Below, one piece after another: positions 3,058 through 31,958 of a stretch of 32,000 nucleotides of DNA. The notes beneath the pieces are model-generated. The model had not been told where the DNA came from and did no database searches. It saw only the letters and a list, made by a program, of their open reading frames with translations. Positions within the stretch are counted from its first letter, which is position 1, and each line of letters begins with the position of its first letter. This DNA is from Ruminococcus albus 7 = DSM 20455 (GTDB lineage: Bacteria; Bacillota; Clostridia; Oscillospirales; Ruminococcaceae). Both the position numbers and the translations under genes were made by a program. The stretch covers positions 210,001 to 242,000 of the forward strand of contig NC_014824.1 of the NCBI RefSeq assembly GCF_000179635.2, written 5' to 3'.

Positions 3058-4035
3058 TTAGTAATTGGGCTTATATAGACGATTGTCTAGTCCAAACGGC
3101 TTCTTTTCTGTGATTTCTCCCGGATCTAACTTCTCATAATGCTCTTCACACATATACATCTTCGCATCGATGTTGTCGATGTAGTGCAAAACAAATGCTT
3201 CTGGAATAGCCGGACAGGATACTGTCCCCCACTCCTGCGTACCGTGGTGCGAAAGTATCATGTGGATCAAAAGCTGAACTTTTTCTTTGTTGTAGTTTCC
3301 GTCCGACGCAAAGCCTTTGATAAGCGAAGCTCCCATATATAAGTGACCTAACAGCACTCCGCTTGCCGTAAACTCAGCATCACCGCTGATCGAGGTCTTA
3401 TATTCCCATACTTTGCCTATATCGTGCAGGGCTGTACCACAGAGAAGCAGCTCACGGTCAAGGTTCGTATATACTCCACAGAGTGCATCGGCAGCCTTGA
3501 CCATACGATAAGAGTGGTACAGCAGACCACCCCTGAGATTGTGATGCATAGATACAGCGGCCGAGGAAGTCATAAAACTATCTTTATACTTTGTCAGTAT
3601 CTTCAACGTAAGATCGGACAACGGCGTATATTTGCCATCATAGTCGTTTGAAGAGCTTTCGATCAGACTGCATATTTCGGTATACATCAGGTCTAAGTCC
3701 ACGGGTGGGAGCTTAGTGAAGTCATTGACCGTAAGTGTGCTGTCTGCTGTCGGTCTGATCTGCACTATTTTGAAGCTCTTTGATCCCTGATACTCAGAAA
3801 CAGATATCTCTGCATCAGCTATCGTGTCCTGCCTGATACCGAGAGACGCAAGACTCTCTTCCGAGGTATCGAACATCATAGCCGTGACTTCCGAAAAGCC
3901 GTCTTTCAGCGATACTCTCACAAATTTATTGCCGTTTCGTGCGGTATTTTCCTCGATTGCAGACACCAATACAGGACGGTTGATCGTGCTGCCGATCTGA
4001 GCATCGGAGAATTTTATATACTGTTCCTTATCCAT
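3058..4035 (-). CDS. yhaM: YhaM-like 3'-5' exoribonuclease (N-terminal OB fold plus HD domain)
   Basis: The 325-aa ORF carries HD-domain motifs MHHNLRGGLLYHS, ALHDIGKV and ILSHHG after an OB-like N-terminal domain. Its size and layout match the YhaM/Cbf1 family. Confidence 0.85.
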   Translation of the reverse strand: MDKEQYIKFSDAQIGSTINRPVLVSAIEENTARNGNKFVRVSLKDGFSEVTAMMFDTSEESLASLGIRQDTIADAEISVSEYQGSKSFKIVQIRPTADSTLTVNDFTKLPPVDLDLMYTEICSLIESSSNDYDGKYTPLSDLTLKILTKYKDSFMTSSAAVSMHHNLRGGLLYHSYRMVKAADALCGVYTNLDRELLLCGTALHDIGKVWEYKTSISGDAEFTASGVLLGHLYMGASLIKGFASDGNYNKEKVQLLIHMILSHHGTQEWGTVSCPAIPEAFVLHYIDNIDAKMYMCEEHYEKLDPGEITEKKPFGLDNRLYKPNY

Positions 4036-4054
4036 AGAAGTTCCTTTCTTAGTA

Positions 4055-4489
4055 TTAGAATGTCACACCTGAAAAAGCGATCAGGTTATTGATGTACTTG
4101 ACAAAACTCCTCAAATTTGGAGGAAAATCGTTGCAGCCGTAATGTTCAAGTACGCTGCCGTTATCAAGAGTGACCTTTACTGACCATTGTGTTCCGTCAT
4201 CAATATCACCATTGATATATTCCTTATTCCAATCATCTATACGGTACTTTAAGAATACATCGCTGATGAATTCATTCCATTCGCCTATCCTTATCTCTTT
4301 TGTTATGTCATCAACCTTGCCCTCACGAAGTAGAGAAGGACTAACCGTCAGTACGGCATGATCGTTCTCTTTTTTGATAGTCACTTCAACGTAACCGCCA
4401 AGGAAACTGCCACATGAGCAGTGAAACGAAATAGCGGATAGAATGTGATTATTATCGGACATAAGTCCGGCATTATACTTTTCTTCCAT
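4055..4489 (-). CDS. hypothetical 144-aa protein, co-transcribed with the yhaM-like gene
   Basis: ORF-track ORF. A promoter lies directly upstream and there is a 19-nt gap to the downstream gene. The RBS (GGTGA) is weak. Confidence 0.65.
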   Translation of the reverse strand: MEEKYNAGLMSDNNHILSAISFHCSCGSFLGGYVEVTIKKENDHAVLTVSPSLLREGKVDDITKEIRIGEWNEFISDVFLKYRIDDWNKEYINGDIDDGTQWSVKVTLDNGSVLEHYGCNDFPPNLRSFVKYINNLIAFSGVTF

Positions 4490-4530
4490 TCGTTATCACC
4501 ACGCATAAATTCTATAAATACTCACTTTAT

Positions 4531-4559
4531 ATGATATCACAAATAGCCAATTTTGTCAA
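4531..4559 (-). promoter_or_regulatory. promoter of the 144-aa/yhaM-like operon
   Basis: The minus strand reads TTGACA-17 nt-TATCAT, with -35 at 4554-4559 and -10 at 4531-4536. Confidence 0.6.
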
Positions 4560-4712
4560 CAATTTTTGACACGATTTCTAGCATAATAAACAATCGATTT
4601 AATTCCATTTTTCACAAGAATTCACGATCAACTCAAAGCTAACCACTCTGATTTATTTTCAATCTGCAAAAGTAGATTGATAATTGAAAAAACATCTGAT
4701 AATGACATAGAG

Positions 4713-4730
4713 TGTGTCACGCGTGACACA
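4713..4730. repeat. 18-bp palindrome family, copy 1 (perfect)
   Basis: The sequence is TGTGTCACGCGTGACACA. Its end lies 92 bp upstream of the -10 of noncoding cassette 1. Confidence 0.95.
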
Positions 4731-4798
4731 ACAAAGATACAATCTAAAATAATGGATATGCTTAAAGCTTATCTTTCATACTGTTAGAAAAATAAAGC

Positions 4799-4827
4799 TT
4801 GAAATATACCTGAATATATGCTATAAT
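4799..4827 (+). promoter_or_regulatory. promoter of noncoding cassette 1
   Basis: TTGAAA-17 nt-TATAAT, with TGC immediately upstream (extended -10). Confidence 0.75.
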
Positions 4828-4833
4828 AAGTAC

Positions 4834-5145
4834 AGTAAAATAATTTCTTTAAGAATAGTATGGCGCGAATGATAGATTCACATGATAATGCTGGTTGATT
4901 CGCACTATATTTCGGGCGACTCGGCGTCCGTAAATCGATGAAGTATTCGTAAGACCATAGCAATGTGGCTGTAACAACGCTCGATAAGGTTTAAACAATA
5001 CATATTAAATCCGTGTATTCGATTTATTTGTATGTTTTTTGCAGATGAAATCTGCACAGTACAAGTAGATTGCGAGAGTTAAGTAACAGAATTATATTCC
5101 AGTTTATTACAATTGCGAACCTAAAAAAATTATAACAGCATGGAG
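4834..5145 (+). ncRNA. candidate structured ncRNA, cassette 1 (3' end uncertain; may read through into cassette 2)
   Basis: A strong promoter is present, but there is no ORF of 60 aa or more and no RBS. The cassette is a paralog of cassette 2, with conserved blocks and conserved hairpins. Confidence 0.5.
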
Positions 5146-5163
5146 TGTGTCACGCATGACACA
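5146..5163. repeat. palindrome family, copy 2 (one central mismatch)
   Basis: The sequence is TGTGTCACGCATGACACA. It lies 64 bp upstream of the -10 of cassette 2. Confidence 0.9.
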
Positions 5164-5203
5164 ACAAAGCATCTAAAATTTATCTTTTATACTATTAGTT
5201 TTT

Positions 5204-5232
5204 TTGAATTATAGCTGCATATATGTTATAAT
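5204..5232 (+). promoter_or_regulatory. promoter of noncoding cassette 2
   Basis: TTGAAT-17 nt-TATAAT, with TGT immediately upstream (extended -10). Confidence 0.75.
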
Positions 5233-5238
5233 AAGTAC

Positions 5239-5636
5239 ATAGAATCATTTTCTCTGAATAGTGCGAAAGATAAGCTCACATTAAAACGCTGGGAAATTCG
5301 CACTTTATTTCGGGCGGCTCGGCGTCCGTAAATCGATTGAAGTATTCGTCAGTCTACAAATCTGTAGCCGAAATAACTCTCGATAGGGTTTAAACAATAC
5401 ACATTCAATCCGTGTATTCAGTTATATTTGTATATTTTTGCGGATGCAATCTGCGCAGTACAAATAGGCTGCGAGCTTATGTGAACTTGAAAGAACTGCA
5501 ATTCGGCTTGGATGCAATCTGCACAGGCAAATGAATTGCTAGAAATGAATCCGATCAGATACAACCTCTAGAACTGAATAATTCTTCTAAACAACAAAGG
5601 TCCCACCGTTTAAACTTCGGTAGGACCTCTTTTTTC
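5239..5636 (+). ncRNA. candidate structured ncRNA, cassette 2
   Basis: It is a paralog of cassette 1 and ends at a strong intrinsic terminator. It contains no credible ORF. Confidence 0.55.
5598..5636. terminator. bidirectional intrinsic terminator
   Basis: AGGTCCCACCG-loop-CGGTAGGACCT is followed by CTTTTTTC on the plus strand. On the minus strand it is followed by a T-rich run, downstream of the 516-aa gene. Confidence 0.8.
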
Positions 5637-5679
5637 TTATATTTGTATTTGACGCATAACTTTGACCATTGCCATTGGA

Positions 5680-7230
5680 TCAGTTTGCATCACGCGGCCT
5701 ACTGTACCAGCAGACAACTACATCACTGCCGTATACCGCATCTAGGAGTGTGGGATCAAATCCGGATTCTTCGCAGTAAGTCGGATATTCCTCGATGTCT
5801 ATCATCTTTGAACGCAGTTGACCACCGTCCGGCGCATACAGTTTATAATGGGCAAAAAGGTTTTCACGATCAACCTCCAGATACACACAGCTCTGACCGA
5901 ATACGCCTGCATAGCTGTGATCGTCCGGCAGTGCAAGATTGCCGGTCAGCGCGATGCCGTTCTCATTCACAAAGATGCGCAAATACGCTTCACCGTGTGC
6001 TTTGTCGGTGCGACAGATGCCGCCGGGATACTGATACGAAACCGGTTCATATTCCTCCGTATCCAGATTCTGAGGAAGAAGCCAGACAGTCTTCGGACCG
6101 TAGACCTTCGCTAAAAAAACATCTAGTTTTTCAATGATCTGCTCCGTTGTCAGCCTGTCCGGATTCTGATACAAATATGCAAACTGTTCTGATTCAAACA
6201 ACGTCCGCAATGACAGACTGATCAGTGGGCCGGGGGGACAAATCCTCTTGGTGAAAAAGAGCGTAGTGCAGCCGGTGCCGGTCAGTGCGGCTTCGCGAAA
6301 TGTGTCTTCATTTGTTTCTGCGGATTCCAGAAGCCCCGACAGTGCGGTGCGCGGCAGTGTACCCCATTGCGCTTCGGCAAAGATATTTGGTTGGAGAATC
6401 GCTTTTTCTATATCCTGCTTCGCGACGGAGATGTGGATGAGGGGCTCACCGACACAGGCGGCAAGCTGCTTAGGATAGAGCATGTTGCTGAAGAGCAGGA
6501 GACTATTGTCGGTCTCCAAGATGCGGATATAATTCCCGGTTTCTTTTTCGGTATGCTCCCAAGCAGATGACATTTCTAGCACTATTCTTTTCGCAAGTGC
6601 TGTGGCATCCGGCTTTTCGGTCATGCTAAGGATATTCCCGGAATAGAGCTCGATGCGTTCGACCTCAGGCACCTGCGCTTTTTTAAAATACAGCACAGCG
6701 CATCCTGCTTCAATGTTCTCTGTCATCAAGGTGATATCCAGATTCAAACAGGTTCCGAGAGCAGCAAGTCCGTCCTCTGCAAAGACATCGTCACCTTCGC
6801 AGATCTCTTTGAGTTGCGCCGCGTTCACACAATCCGGGAACTGTGCGGCAAACTGCCGATAATCGCTGTGTGTTCTGCCGCCGTAGGGCTCGCCGATCGC
6901 TATGCGGCAGGACTTCTTCCGGTTCGCTACTTGAAGCGATAGTTCCGCAAAATCGCTGTCAACAAGCTCTGCTGTGATAACCGGTTCCTGAAAAGCACCG
7001 ACTGCAATTGCTGCGCAGCGTTTAAGCGCGGTATGATTCTCTTTCTCCGGAGAGACTGCAAACCACTGTCCGCTTGCTGAAAAACGAAGACGTAGAGCAG
7101 TATATGCGTCGGATGCCTCTGCTTCCACAAAACCCTGCGCGGTCATGTATCTGCGAAGAATATCAGCTAGCTTCTCCGAAGAAAGCTGCTGCGGATTTTG
7201 AACAAAGATGCAGGATGCAGAAAGTCCCAT
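5680..7230 (-). CDS. hypothetical 516-aa protein encoded by a compositionally foreign, GC-richer gene
   Basis: ORF-track ORF with an AAAAGGAG RBS and a TACTATAAT -10 upstream. The gene body is visibly GC-rich, and the spurious ORFs in other frames are typical of high GC. Confidence 0.85.
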   Translation of the reverse strand: MGLSASCIFVQNPQQLSSEKLADILRRYMTAQGFVEAEASDAYTALRLRFSASGQWFAVSPEKENHTALKRCAAIAVGAFQEPVITAELVDSDFAELSLQVANRKKSCRIAIGEPYGGRTHSDYRQFAAQFPDCVNAAQLKEICEGDDVFAEDGLAALGTCLNLDITLMTENIEAGCAVLYFKKAQVPEVERIELYSGNILSMTEKPDATALAKRIVLEMSSAWEHTEKETGNYIRILETDNSLLLFSNMLYPKQLAACVGEPLIHISVAKQDIEKAILQPNIFAEAQWGTLPRTALSGLLESAETNEDTFREAALTGTGCTTLFFTKRICPPGPLISLSLRTLFESEQFAYLYQNPDRLTTEQIIEKLDVFLAKVYGPKTVWLLPQNLDTEEYEPVSYQYPGGICRTDKAHGEAYLRIFVNENGIALTGNLALPDDHSYAGVFGQSCVYLEVDRENLFAHYKLYAPDGGQLRSKMIDIEEYPTYCEESGFDPTLLDAVYGSDVVVCWYSRPRDAN

Positions 7231-27495: not shown

Positions 27496-27697
27496 AAATA
27501 AATTCTATTTTTATTTTTCATTTTACTTAACTGAATTTTCTACTATAATACAAAAGGCAAGTATTTTAATATCTATTAGCAAAACTTCCCTGCCGCTTCT
27601 ACACAGTGGAACATCCTTAAAGAAAAGTCAGCTAAGTGTAAATCTTATCCGTATATTTCCGCCTTTGTCCTTATAAGGATAAGAAGCCTTTTTAATT

Positions 27698-27715
27698 TGT
27701 GTCACGTGTGACACA
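27698..27715. repeat. palindrome family, copy 7 (one central mismatch)
   Basis: The sequence is TGTGTCACGTGTGACACA. Confidence 0.9.
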
Positions 27716-27899
27716 GCAAAAGCACCTGGATTTAATTGTAACCTATAATGGTATTGCAGGTAGATAAAGCATTTAAGACTCCCCTGCTTTGAATTTTAAT
27801 AGTGCCAATTGAAGGTCAAAGGCTTTAATTCACTGGATTTCACATAGAGTATGTCACGGGTGTCACACTTGATACACAGGGACTGAGAACATTTCTCGG

Positions 27900-27941
27900 G
27901 TGGATTTTATCCGTTAATTGAGTGGATTTCATCCGTTAATT
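27900..27941 (+). repeat. iteron-like pair, unit 1
   Basis: GTGGATTTTATCCGTTAATT and GTGGATTTCATCCGTTAATT start 22 bp apart. Each contains the mini-palindrome GGAT-NNN-ATCC. Confidence 0.85.
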
Positions 27942-27982
27942 CAAAATCGAAACTAACAGAGATTCTGCGTTTCAGATTAGTT

Positions 27983-28000
27983 TGTGTCACGCGTGACACA
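27983..28000. repeat. palindrome family, copy 8 (perfect)
   Basis: The sequence is TGTGTCACGCGTGACACA. Confidence 0.95.
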
Positions 28001-28184
28001 GTAAAAGTGCATAGATTTCATTTGCCCCAATAATGGTTATGCAGGTAAATAAAGAATTTAAGACTCCCCTGCTTTGGATTTTAATGGTACCAATTGAAGA
28101 TCAAAGGCTTTAATTCACTGGATTTCACATAGAGTATGTCACGGTTGTCACACTTGATACACAGGGACTGAGAACATTTCTCGG

Positions 28185-28226
28185 GTGGATTTTATCCGTT
28201 AATTGAGTGGATTTCATCCGTTAATT
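28185..28226 (+). repeat. iteron-like pair, unit 2
   Basis: It has the same two 20-mers as 27900-27941, shifted by 285 bp. Confidence 0.85.
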
Positions 28227-28267
28227 CAAAATCGAAACTAACAGAGATTCTGCGTTTCAGATTAGTT

Positions 28268-28285
28268 TGTGTCACGCGTGACACA
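28268..28285. repeat. palindrome family, copy 9 (perfect)
   Basis: The sequence is TGTGTCACGCGTGACACA. Confidence 0.95.
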
Positions 28286-28469
28286 GTAAAAGTGCATAGA
28301 TTTCATTTGCCCCAATAATGGTTATGCAGGTAAATAAAGAATTTAAGACTCCCCTGCTTTGGATTTTAATGGTACCAATTGAAGATCAAAGGCTTTAATT
28401 CACTGGATTTCACATAGAGTATGTCACGGGTGTCACACTTGATACACAGGGACTGAGAACATTTCTCGG

Positions 28470-28511
28470 GTGGATTTTATCCGTTAATTGAGTGGATTTC
28501 ATCCGTTAATT
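28470..28511 (+). repeat. iteron-like pair, unit 3
   Basis: It has the same two 20-mers, shifted by 570 bp. Confidence 0.85.
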
Positions 28512-28552
28512 CAAAATCGAAACTAACAGAGATTCTGCGTTTCAAATTAGTT

Positions 28553-28570
28553 TGTGTCACGCGTGACACA
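28553..28570. repeat. palindrome family, copy 10 (perfect)
   Basis: TGTGTCACGCGTGACACA lies 68 bp upstream of the -10 of the 390-aa operon. Confidence 0.95.
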
Positions 28571-28614
28571 GTAAGTTCAATTACATAATTGCAAATACTA
28601 TTTTCCCTTTTTCT

Positions 28615-31940: not shown

Positions 31941-31958
31941 TGTGTCACGCGTGACACA
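31941..31958. repeat. palindrome family, copy 12 (perfect)
   Basis: TGTGTCACGCGTGACACA lies directly after the terminator T-run. Confidence 0.95.

Follow-up and report, generated by a model that had tools for sequence, protein, structure and literature searches.

Tandem noncoding cassettes of Ruminococcus albus 7 as probable type V-F1 Cas12f guide RNA genes located away from cas12f

Introduction

What RNA is encoded by two similar units of about 400 nt that stand in tandem, at positions 4690-5640, in a stretch of Ruminococcus albus 7 DNA, each provided with a palindrome and an extended -10 promoter and both closed by a single shared terminator? The stretch, hereafter the window, comprises 32,000 nt (contig NC_014824.1, positions 210,001 to 242,000 of the forward strand), encodes the proteins ADU23916-ADU23938 and belongs to a replicon of 420,706 bp, which we take, from its size, to be the megaplasmid pRUMAL01. 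A plasmid of that name belongs to R. albus strain 7 (PMC4081043). An earlier examination made without database searches (the sequence-only reading) had proposed that the two units, called cassettes here, represent a novel class of structured RNA. [quoted passage not shown] Probably they are self-contained type V-F1 guide RNA genes, located away from cas12f, that serve a trans-encoded Cas12f in defence.

As the smallest genome editors, Cas12f1 (V-U3) systems are prized, but good descriptions of their natural biology are scarce, and their arrays are often tiny. Members of the V-U3 clade of Cas12f1 occur in Clostridia and Bacilli, have no adaptation genes and encode their tracrRNA between cas12f and the array (PMC7229846). 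The tracrRNA of AsCas12f is 169 nt long and its crRNAs consist of part of a repeat and a spacer; in the engineered single guides the tracrRNA is linked to the crRNA by an added tetraloop (PMC8548392). In the AsCas12f single guide, which has a scaffold of 171 nt and a guide of 20 nt, there are four stems (1-4) and two segments of repeat:anti-repeat pairing (bioRxiv 10.1101/2023.07.03.547593).

Homology of the cassettes to Cas12f guide RNAs

The most conserved block of the cassettes, CGGGCGNCTCGGCGTCCGTAAA, was scanned against one genome per species and gave two matches, in the loci L008 and L009. In L008 (Ruminococcus sp. UBA4383) a 444-aa (amino acid) gene directly precedes the block, and a CRISPR array of seven 32-nt repeats spaced 65-68 nt apart directly follows it; L009 carries the 3' end of the same gene, again followed by the block. 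The 444-aa protein has the Pfam domains Cas12f1-like_TNB (1.7e-21) and OrfB_IS605. We place it by sequence in the type V-F1 clade, formerly V-U3, because it matched the AsCas12f structures 8J12, 8J3R, 7WJU and 8DZJ at E values of about 1e-114, but LaTranC only weakly (1.5e-6). More than 2,400 homologues of this nuclease were found at E <= 1e-10, and every homologue locus examined had the order nuclease, scaffold of about 190 nt, array, with neither cas1 nor cas2 nearby. Such scaffolds stand between cas12f and its array in Ruminococcus and Oscillospiraceae genomes, and across all collected loci there were 49 nuclease-linked scaffold matches.

A profile built for nhmmer solely from 26 distinct nuclease-linked scaffolds matched both cassettes over nearly its full length: cassette 1 at 4860-5077 (E 1.4e-43, model positions 9-223) and cassette 2 at 5257-5476 (E 3.9e-43, model positions 8-223). 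Of the 87 near-invariant columns of the linked scaffolds, 83 are kept in cassette 1 and 79 in cassette 2. These matches, together with the covariation described in the next section and, for cassette 1, its helices, delimit a tracrRNA-like scaffold at 4862-5043 in cassette 1 and at 5260-5442 in cassette 2, both on the plus strand. The homology continues into the repeat. A sub-module of about 36 nt had been reported to occur once in cassette 1 and twice in cassette 2; a unit of about 33-36 nt is indeed present at 5041/5044-5076, 5440/5443-5475 and 5511-5542, and it can now be named, as it aligns with the CRISPR repeat of the cas12f-linked arrays, all of whose repeats end in TGCGAG. Repeats measure 32-33 nt and spacers 33-35 nt.

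The cassette RNA is thus homologous to the tracrRNA region of V-F1 Cas12f1 systems (about 180 nt here, 169 nt in AsCas12f) and resembles their guide RNAs in having several stems, a two-part repeat:anti-repeat duplex and a guide 3' of the repeat (PMC7229846, PMC8548392, bioRxiv 10.1101/2023.07.03.547593). Although the RNA belongs to this family by homology, the locus itself is not a complete V-F1 system, because the window contains no adjacent cas12f effector gene.

Covariation and predicted structure of the cassette RNA

The scaffold of cassette 1 comprises stem 1 (GCGAAT...ATTCGC), the hairpin CGGGCG-ACUCGG-CGUCCG, a long-range helix AUCGA/UCGAU around a CCAUA/UGUGG hairpin, the hairpin AAUACA/UGUAUU and a 3' anti-repeat. 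Base pairing had been noted to be kept where the two copies differ, and we examined this in an alignment of 16 sequences, 12 of which are nuclease-linked. RNAalifold returned 31 pairs, 15 with compensatory changes. The structure that was tested consisted of five RNAalifold helices and stem 1, in total six helices and 36 pairs; the tested set excluded the RNAalifold helix of columns 206-243, which is incompatible with the anti-repeat:repeat hairpin. A standard pair was formed in 91.8% of the cells, compared with 80.9% in shuffled and at most 45.8% in slid controls. Changes on both sides were seen in 21 of the 36 pairs (shuffled, 11.3; slid, at most 10), and the covariation score was 0.334 (shuffled, 0.137; slid, at most 0.093), with none of 500 shuffles reaching the observed values. 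The compensatory changes that had been noted between the two copies are genuine. The hairpin that had been singled out, CCATA-GCAA-TGTGG at 4955-4968 replaced by CTACA-AATC-TGTAG at 5354-5367, lies in a helix that covaries throughout the family (columns 97-101/107-111) and is its most variable one, other members having TCTGA/TTCAG, CCCTC/GAGGG or ACCGG/CCGGC. Folding of each whole cassette as a single sequence was uninformative (z -1.5 and -3.2).

The 3' part could not be aligned in register by column and was folded sequence by sequence. A long anti-repeat:repeat hairpin was predicted in 14 of the 16 members from different sequences, always with CGAG unpaired beside the guide. In cassette 1 the predicted hairpin spans 5020-5072 (-19.5 kcal/mol) and in cassette 2 it has -16.3 kcal/mol, the 3' CGAG being unpaired in both. 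The anti-repeat and the first repeat are joined by a 3-nt loop, which is GAA, GCA or UAU, so that the fusion of the two is predicted to make a natural single-guide RNA. This structure agrees with the single-guide architecture published for AsCas12f (bioRxiv 10.1101/2023.07.03.547593), with one notable difference. The laboratory guide of AsCas12f is joined by an added tetraloop, whereas the 3-nt loop of the cassettes is natural and is found in nuclease-linked loci as well; no description of this cis fusion as a natural single guide was found in the Cas12f literature cited here. Nature would then already make the fused guide that engineers have built, and the diverged, structure-preserving scaffolds constitute a natural data set for guide RNA engineering.

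These results bear on the proposal that the cassettes encode a new structured RNA class unrelated to CRISPR. The lack of a recognized family and the strong covariation both favour it. Rfam has no match to the cassettes at the gathering threshold, and a search of 4450-5700 with Rfam 15 at E values up to 10 returned spurious microRNA, snoRNA and small RNA matches alone. The RNA is missing from Rfam because the family has never been curated there, although it is known and structurally characterized. Full-length homology to scaffolds that lie between cas12f and arrays in dozens of loci, a related nuclease close to AsCas12f, and a 3' element that is the repeat of those arrays refute the new class, to which we assign almost no probability. 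Long, strongly covarying "novel noncoding RNAs" near defence genes may be unannotated guide RNAs, and annotators should bear this in mind.

Organization of the two cassettes

The tandem arrangement described earlier is borne out by direct-repeat blocks of 47-82 nt with 80-83% identity at a spacing of 398-433 nt, and the two promoters are present where they had been placed, near-consensus and with the TG of an extended -10 element. The promoter of cassette 1 (4799-4827, plus strand) reads TTGAAA-17-(TG)CTATAAT, written TTGAAA-17-TGCTATAAT, with 11 of 12 hexamer matches, and would direct a transcription start at about 4834-4836; that of cassette 2 (5204-5232, plus strand) reads TTGAAT-17-(TG)TTATAAT, written TTGAAT-17-TGTTATAAT, with 10 of 12 matches and a predicted start at about 5239-5241. 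Upstream of the cassette 1 promoter is a module, TTTCATACTGTTAGAAAAA, that is common to other orphan units, that is, scaffold units without cas12f. Neither cassette appears to encode a protein: only frame-inconsistent open reading frames (ORFs) of at most 59 aa occur on either strand, none of which is conserved between the copies. The earlier statement on this point thus stands, and a small-protein reading of the cassettes was rejected for the same reason.

Downstream of the cassette 1 scaffold lies a CRISPR repeat, GATGAAATCTGCACAGTACAAGTAGATTGCGAG (5044-5076, plus strand), which aligns with the 32-nt repeats of cas12f-linked arrays and is joined in cis to the anti-repeat via a GAA loop (5047-5049). 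The sequence directly 3' of this canonical repeat, AGTTAAGTAACAGAATTATATTCCAGTTTATTAC (5077-5110, plus strand; the 3' limit is arbitrary), is the guide, equivalent to a spacer. Cassette 1 is a single-repeat unit with neither a second repeat nor a terminator, and transcription should therefore presumably extend into cassette 2. In cassette 2 the first repeat, GATGCAATCTGCGCAGTACAAATAGGCTGCGAG (5443-5475, plus strand), is cis-paired with the anti-repeat via a GCA loop and is followed by a 35-nt spacer, CTTATGTGAACTTGAAAGAACTGCAATTCGGCTTG (5476-5510, plus strand), bounded by two repeats. The second of these, GATGCAATCTGCACAGGCAAATGAATTGCTAG (5511-5542, plus strand), was detected by the direct-repeat search and by a weak profile match at 5499-5542; it is degenerate, its family-conserved TGCGAG end being mutated to TGCTAG, and the terminal repeats are likewise degenerate in the loci L051, L061, L040 and L058, to be described below.

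The array is followed by a trailer conserved between strains, AAATGAATC[C/A]GATCAGATACA... (5543-5598, plus strand), and by an intrinsic terminator, GGUCCCACCG-UUUAAACUU-CGGUAGGACC then UCUUUUUUC (5599-5636, plus strand), composed of a stem at 5599-5627 and a U-run. The pair of cassettes does end at a strong terminator, as had been proposed (dG -15.4 kcal/mol, z = -4.2, none of 200 shuffles folding as well); a simple terminator scan did not pick it up, the loop being 9 nt long. It may also serve a convergent 516-aa gene that ends at 5680.

Orphan units at other loci and variation of their spacers

A metagenome scan with a degenerate core pattern of the scaffold yielded 36 loci. A nuclease gene stands immediately upstream in 27 of them, five have the scaffold without a nuclease, three are GC-rich chance matches and one is a spacer inside another CRISPR array. 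Two loci are syntenic with the cassettes: L051 has a single unit with a different spacer, and L061, a 387.5-kb contig of assembly GCA_000526775.1, has a unit made of the palindrome, the same promoter, the scaffold, one degenerate repeat and the trailer, with no spacer. A second orphan locus is represented by L040, L042 and L049, has its own promoter (TTGCAT-17-TGTTATAAT) and is placed on the same replicon because it is flanked by homologues of ADU23996 and ADU23998. The contig L058, which encodes a protein identical to ADU23998, begins within the array of this second locus, where it has a third spacer, and at its other end breaks off in a fourth unit's promoter and scaffold.

Spacers vary at both R. 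albus orphan loci, from 0 to 2 per strain. The window locus has one spacer, L051 a different one and L061 none; the second locus exists in three spacer states, the array of L049 being longer by one spacer on its scaffold-proximal side. Such variation, with a gain on the scaffold side in L049, looks like that of a working CRISPR array. Upstream, the orphan units of R. albus have a promoter module in common, TTTTATACTATTAGAAAA ... TTGAAT. It is unlike the cas12f promoter, which argues that promoter and scaffold spread together as one unit. The idea that the orphan units arose when the cas12f ORF was lost from behind its promoter was rejected on the same ground, the cas12f promoter region being different from the orphan promoter module. 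A complete guide module of promoter, tracrRNA, repeat and spacer is thus separable from the nuclease gene and can be multiplied on a megaplasmid, and satellite modules of this kind still change their spacers from strain to strain, which raises the question of how spacers are acquired.

Turnover was also observed in a nuclease-linked setting. The loci L014, L015 and L016 have an identical 427-aa Cas12f and the same scaffold, and their arrays of about 8, 11 and 1 spacers share the last spacer and the degenerate terminal repeat alone, which shows active spacer turnover though no adaptation genes are nearby. An independent case of nuclease-less single-guide genes was found in L030, a 10-kb contig from the gut of the European hare: two tandem promoter-driven units of scaffold and single repeat (3060-3270 and 4190-4350), both lacking stem 1, with no nuclease gene on the contig. 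The first follows TTGACA-17-TAGAAT, and the second abuts a tRNA-Arg gene. Logan short-read contigs with the flanking genes of the orphan loci (L001-L007 for the window locus, and L058-L060) break inside scaffold or repeat sequences. The breaks in L001-L007 fit a repeated element and help explain why the locus is easily missed. As the multi-copy scaffold fragments assemblies, orphan units should be under-represented in draft genomes and metagenome-assembled genomes.

Targets of the guides and spacers

For the extra spacer of L049 there was a match of 33 out of 34 positions in an IMG/VR contig, and the 5' flank (TTTC) is T-rich. This protospacer is part of a phage DNA helicase gene (phrog_62, 2e-161), and the contig also encodes the large subunit of terminase. 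No IMG/VR match was obtained for the spacers of L051 and L058, and the scaffold was not found among the 2.9 million viral contigs of IMG/VR.

Over its first 20 nt (5077-5096) the guide of cassette 1 is identical to positions 3579-3598 of another viral contig, L057 (IMGVR_UViG_3300029741_000300), and the match stops after these 20 nt. It lies inside a TTGACA-17-TATAAT promoter, its 5' flank is GACAA, which is not T-rich, and it adjoins a divergent gene that resembles, by eye, a cI/Xre-type repressor. Given the AT-rich 20-mer, the stop after 20 nt and the non-T-rich flank, we set this candidate aside as probably a chance match. A 17 of 20 match between the L051 spacer and the interior of the cas12f gene of L010 is within chance expectation. 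No guide had a self-target among the collected sequences.

A separate observation concerns the contig ULUK01021152.1 (L054), where a different CRISPR array at about 4013-4049, with the 36-nt repeat GTTTTACTACCCTATGAATTTACACTACTCCAAAAC, holds a 29-nt spacer, GGGCGACTCGGCGTCCTAAAATCGAGAAA, that is identical over its 29 nt to part of the L020 group's Cas12f scaffold, in the conserved hairpin region. By sequence, this spacer appears to have been taken by one CRISPR system from the tracrRNA gene of another, suggesting either conflict between CRISPR systems or that Cas12f loci sometimes arrive on invading DNA.

Source of the nuclease and function of the cassettes

In the reading that we favour, a sigma-70-type promoter would transcribe the tracrRNA-like scaffold of about 180 nt, whose 3' anti-repeat would run into a CRISPR repeat and fold back on it via the 3-nt loop, forming a natural single guide in which the stretch that follows the repeat is the guide. 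Cassette 1 would give one single guide, and cassette 2 a two-repeat mini-array with one spacer, a degenerate repeat and the terminator. The RNAs would load onto a Cas12f dimer encoded elsewhere in the cell (in trans), and the loaded nuclease would cut matching phage or plasmid DNA in a manner dependent on a protospacer adjacent motif. The cassettes would in this way enlarge the guide set of a nuclease that has only a very short array itself. Transcription of the cassettes, binding to Cas12f, action in trans, and possession of or encounter with a cognate nuclease by R. albus 7 are what we infer. Taken on its own, trans-acting defence has in our judgment somewhat better than an even chance.

A cell in which both parts are present is provided by GCA_000526775.1, whose chromosome contig (L010) carries cas12f, a scaffold and four repeats, and whose 387.5-kb contig bears the syntenic orphan unit of L061. 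In rumen metagenome contigs, the gap between the R. albus-type cas12f and the downstream guaA is 329 nt, which fits a scaffold and about one repeat.

Several observations weigh against a trans-acting role. No cas12f or TnpB gene was found in the window by tblastn with the L008 Cas12f (best E 0.95), and R. albus 7 has no accession among the NCBI-tagged Cas12f clusters. cas12f is not at its usual chromosomal site, between a metallophosphoesterase gene and guaA, in two other R. albus assemblies, and presence of the nuclease is therefore strain-variable. With the cas12f-linked scaffold of the strain that has both parts (GCA_000526775.1), the orphan scaffolds share only about 78% identity, so that compatibility is assumed. 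Neither the cassette 1 guide nor the cassette 2 spacer has a target in the window, in cultured phages or in plasmids, and the cassette 2 spacer has no protospacer in IMG/VR. Pfam scans of 23 of the larger ORFs of the window also revealed no TnpB or Cas12 domain.

The cassettes might instead be inactive relics of a former cas12f locus, or copied modules, transcribed or silent, left without present function after the nuclease was lost in R. albus 7. In favour of this, the window has no nuclease gene, none could be traced to R. albus 7, and R. albus strains differ in whether they have cas12f. Orphan CRISPR arrays are common in genomes (PMC7145637), and in R. albus AR67 short repeat regions were described with no Cas genes found (PMC5723332). 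However, the scaffolds retain 79-83 of the 87 near-invariant positions, the divergence of about 20% between the copies preserves pairing, the promoters are still near-consensus, at least four orphan units are kept on the replicon lineage, and spacers vary between strains, one of them being derived from a phage. We regard decay to relics as unlikely.

The location of the units raises another explanation, namely that a plasmid uses the guides to redirect the Cas12f of whatever host it has entered at competitors, or to soak it up with harmless guides as an RNA anti-CRISPR by which the plasmid is protected. All R. albus orphan units are on replicons of extrachromosomal size (420.7 kb and 387.5 kb), whereas cas12f is chromosomal; the promoters of the units are strong, and there is more than one copy; the L054 spacer identical to a Cas12f scaffold suggests that such loci are sometimes invaders; and there are precedents in repeat-mimicking RNA anti-CRISPRs and in mini-arrays on mobile elements (PMC10651486, PMC11656645, PMC9071438). 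A decoy, however, needs no spacer turnover, yet the spacers vary and one targets a phage; the scaffold is absent from the viral contigs searched; and that the replicon is a plasmid is judged from its size and from a paper naming pRUMAL01. Hijack or decoy is, we judge, quite improbable. In a wider and speculative version, which we also consider unlikely, R. albus 7 would lack cas12f altogether, and the at least four tracrRNA::crRNA genes of the megaplasmid would form a portable, nuclease-free library that commandeers the Cas12f of any host to kill phages or rival plasmids or to jam the nuclease, with the tracrRNA gene acting as the leader for spacer uptake in a system that itself lacks adaptation genes.

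A regulatory role is the remaining alternative: the cassette 1 guide and the conserved trailer might steer Cas12f, or a dead relative, to a chromosomal promoter by partial complementarity. The L061 unit, with scaffold, degenerate repeat and trailer, resembles cr-like mini-arrays (PMC10120712), orphan guide RNAs serve dead Cas12f (dCas12f) systems in trans (PMC12259090), and the hare-gut contig L030 has two promoter-driven single-repeat units with fixed guides. On the other hand, neither the cassette 1 guide nor the trailer had a match of at least 16 of 20 in the collected sequences besides themselves, including the cas12f promoter region of L010, and the related nucleases fall in the nuclease-active AsCas12f clade. 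Regulation by single guides is in our view very unlikely.

Comparison with other guide RNA systems

The cassettes differ from known V-F1 Cas12f1 loci in that there is no adjacent cas12f, each cassette has a dedicated promoter, the arrays have 0-2 spacers, and one replicon has tandem duplicates as well as units at scattered sites. It is unusual that complete promoter-bearing guide modules are uncoupled from cas12f, tandem and dispersed, and still turn over spacers. For the arrangement as such there are precedents in orphan arrays on plasmids (PMC9071438) and in orphan dCas12f guide RNAs (PMC12259090). Like the orphan arrays and mini-arrays of plasmids and other mobile elements, which use Cas proteins in trans, the cassettes combine repeats and spacers, with no cas genes, on a large replicon of extrachromosomal size (PMC9071438, PMC11656645, PMC7145637), and the spacers of both kinds target other mobile elements; unlike them, each orphan of the cassette type has its own tracrRNA copy and promoter, so that all but the protein is supplied.

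Cas9 tracr-L, cr-like RNAs (crlRNAs), TldR and dCas12f guide RNAs control transcription via partial complementarity to promoters. With Cas9 tracr-L, scaRNA, crlRNA and dCas12f guides the cassettes share a genome-encoded scaffold and guide in one molecule, and orphans of those kinds can act in trans (PMC10120712, PMC12259090). All these RNAs have conserved guides that partly match promoters, whereas here at least some of the guides vary between strains and derive from phage, and no self-target turned up in the collected sequences. The omega-RNA (reRNA) of TnpB and the RNA of TranC are similar in having a long scaffold and a 3' guide in one transcript for a RuvC nuclease of about 400 aa. However, in contrast to the omega-RNA of IS200/IS605 elements, the cassettes neither overlap a tnpB gene nor lie at a transposon end, and they have true CRISPR repeats with strain-variable spacers; TranC is set apart by the weak match of the related nuclease to LaTranC (E 1.5e-6, against 1e-114 for AsCas12f). 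RNA anti-CRISPRs (Racrs), like the cassettes, are promoter-driven, repeat-containing RNAs encoded on mobile-type replicons without cas genes (PMC10651486), but Racrs, which occur in viruses and plasmids, are short and mimic a repeat, whereas the cassettes, which were not found in IMG/VR, have a full scaffold and variable spacers.

The palindrome and neighboring genes

Each cassette had been described as opening with a palindrome. A perfect 16-nt palindrome is present at both places, GTGTCACGCGTGACAC at 4714-4729 upstream of cassette 1 and GTGTCACGCATGACAC at 5147-5162 upstream of cassette 2 (general form GTGTCACGC(G/A)TGACAC), but it is not part of the cassette. In the 32 kb it occurs at 12 sites with 0-1 mismatch, against 0.16 expected, all of them intergenic (4714, 5147, 10797, 13749, 16735, 27479, 27699, 27984, 28269, 28554, 31287 and 31942). 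It often stands just after terminators, and several sites lie 60-100 nt upstream of TGnTATAAT boxes. The palindrome is equally placed in L051 and L061, but there is none upstream of the units of L040 and L049 or of the fourth unit at the 3' end of L058. Because it is found 12 times in the window and is missing at the second and fourth units, we conclude that it is a feature of the replicon and not of the RNA. It may be a binding site of a partition or regulatory protein, or an element of the REP (repetitive extragenic palindromic) type. A role as a sigma-54 enhancer or as a site of a fixed-distance activator was set aside, as the distance to the -10 element varies from about 72 to 100 nt and two orphan units have no palindrome.

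At 27692-28574 there is a noncoding tandem array of a 285-nt unit (3.1 copies, 95% identity) with no Rfam match. Besides the palindrome, each unit has a degenerate pair of half-palindromes, ATGTCACGGGTGTCACACTTGATAC, and the 21-nt direct repeat GTGGATTT(C/T)ATCCGTTAATT in two copies; a similar motif comes after the palindrome at 31942. Judged by its sequence, the array looks like plasmid iterons or a centromere.

The cassettes had also been noted to lie next to a divergent OB/HD exoribonuclease operon. A divergent HD protein gene, named by NCBI as 3'-5' exoribonuclease YhaM family, does adjoin them (3058-4035, minus strand), and a YhaM-like gene is beside this orphan locus in three strains (the window, L051 and L061), but it is not a consistent partner, since it flanks no other orphan locus. 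Trimming of the guide RNA by the YhaM-like protein would be speculation. PADLOC models gave only weak Cas3-HD-like matches to the HD protein among the neighbors, and no defence system. The genes of the neighborhood encode HipA, the HD/YhaM-like protein, a DUF87 ATPase, NYN, a MutS-domain-V ATPase, SUKH and ankyrin proteins, a set that resembles a variable, defence-type island.

The convergent gene downstream of cassette 2 is a 516-aa ORF (5680-7230, minus strand) with no Pfam or PADLOC match, and it is kept beside the L051 and L061 units. It lies in a stretch of 51% G+C (6001-7000) surrounded by about 35%, a contrast that suggests recent foreign origin. The sole match in the window at the Rfam gathering score is a cyclic di-GMP (c-di-GMP)-I riboswitch at 2830-2912 on the minus strand (70.7 bits, E 3.9e-12). 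It is located upstream of a 543-aa gene with the UniRef name dynamin family, which in longer contigs of the locus is followed by a gene for a DUF87/HerA-like ATPase of about 1000 aa, and by sequence the locus appears to be a c-di-GMP-controlled operon within the defence-type island.

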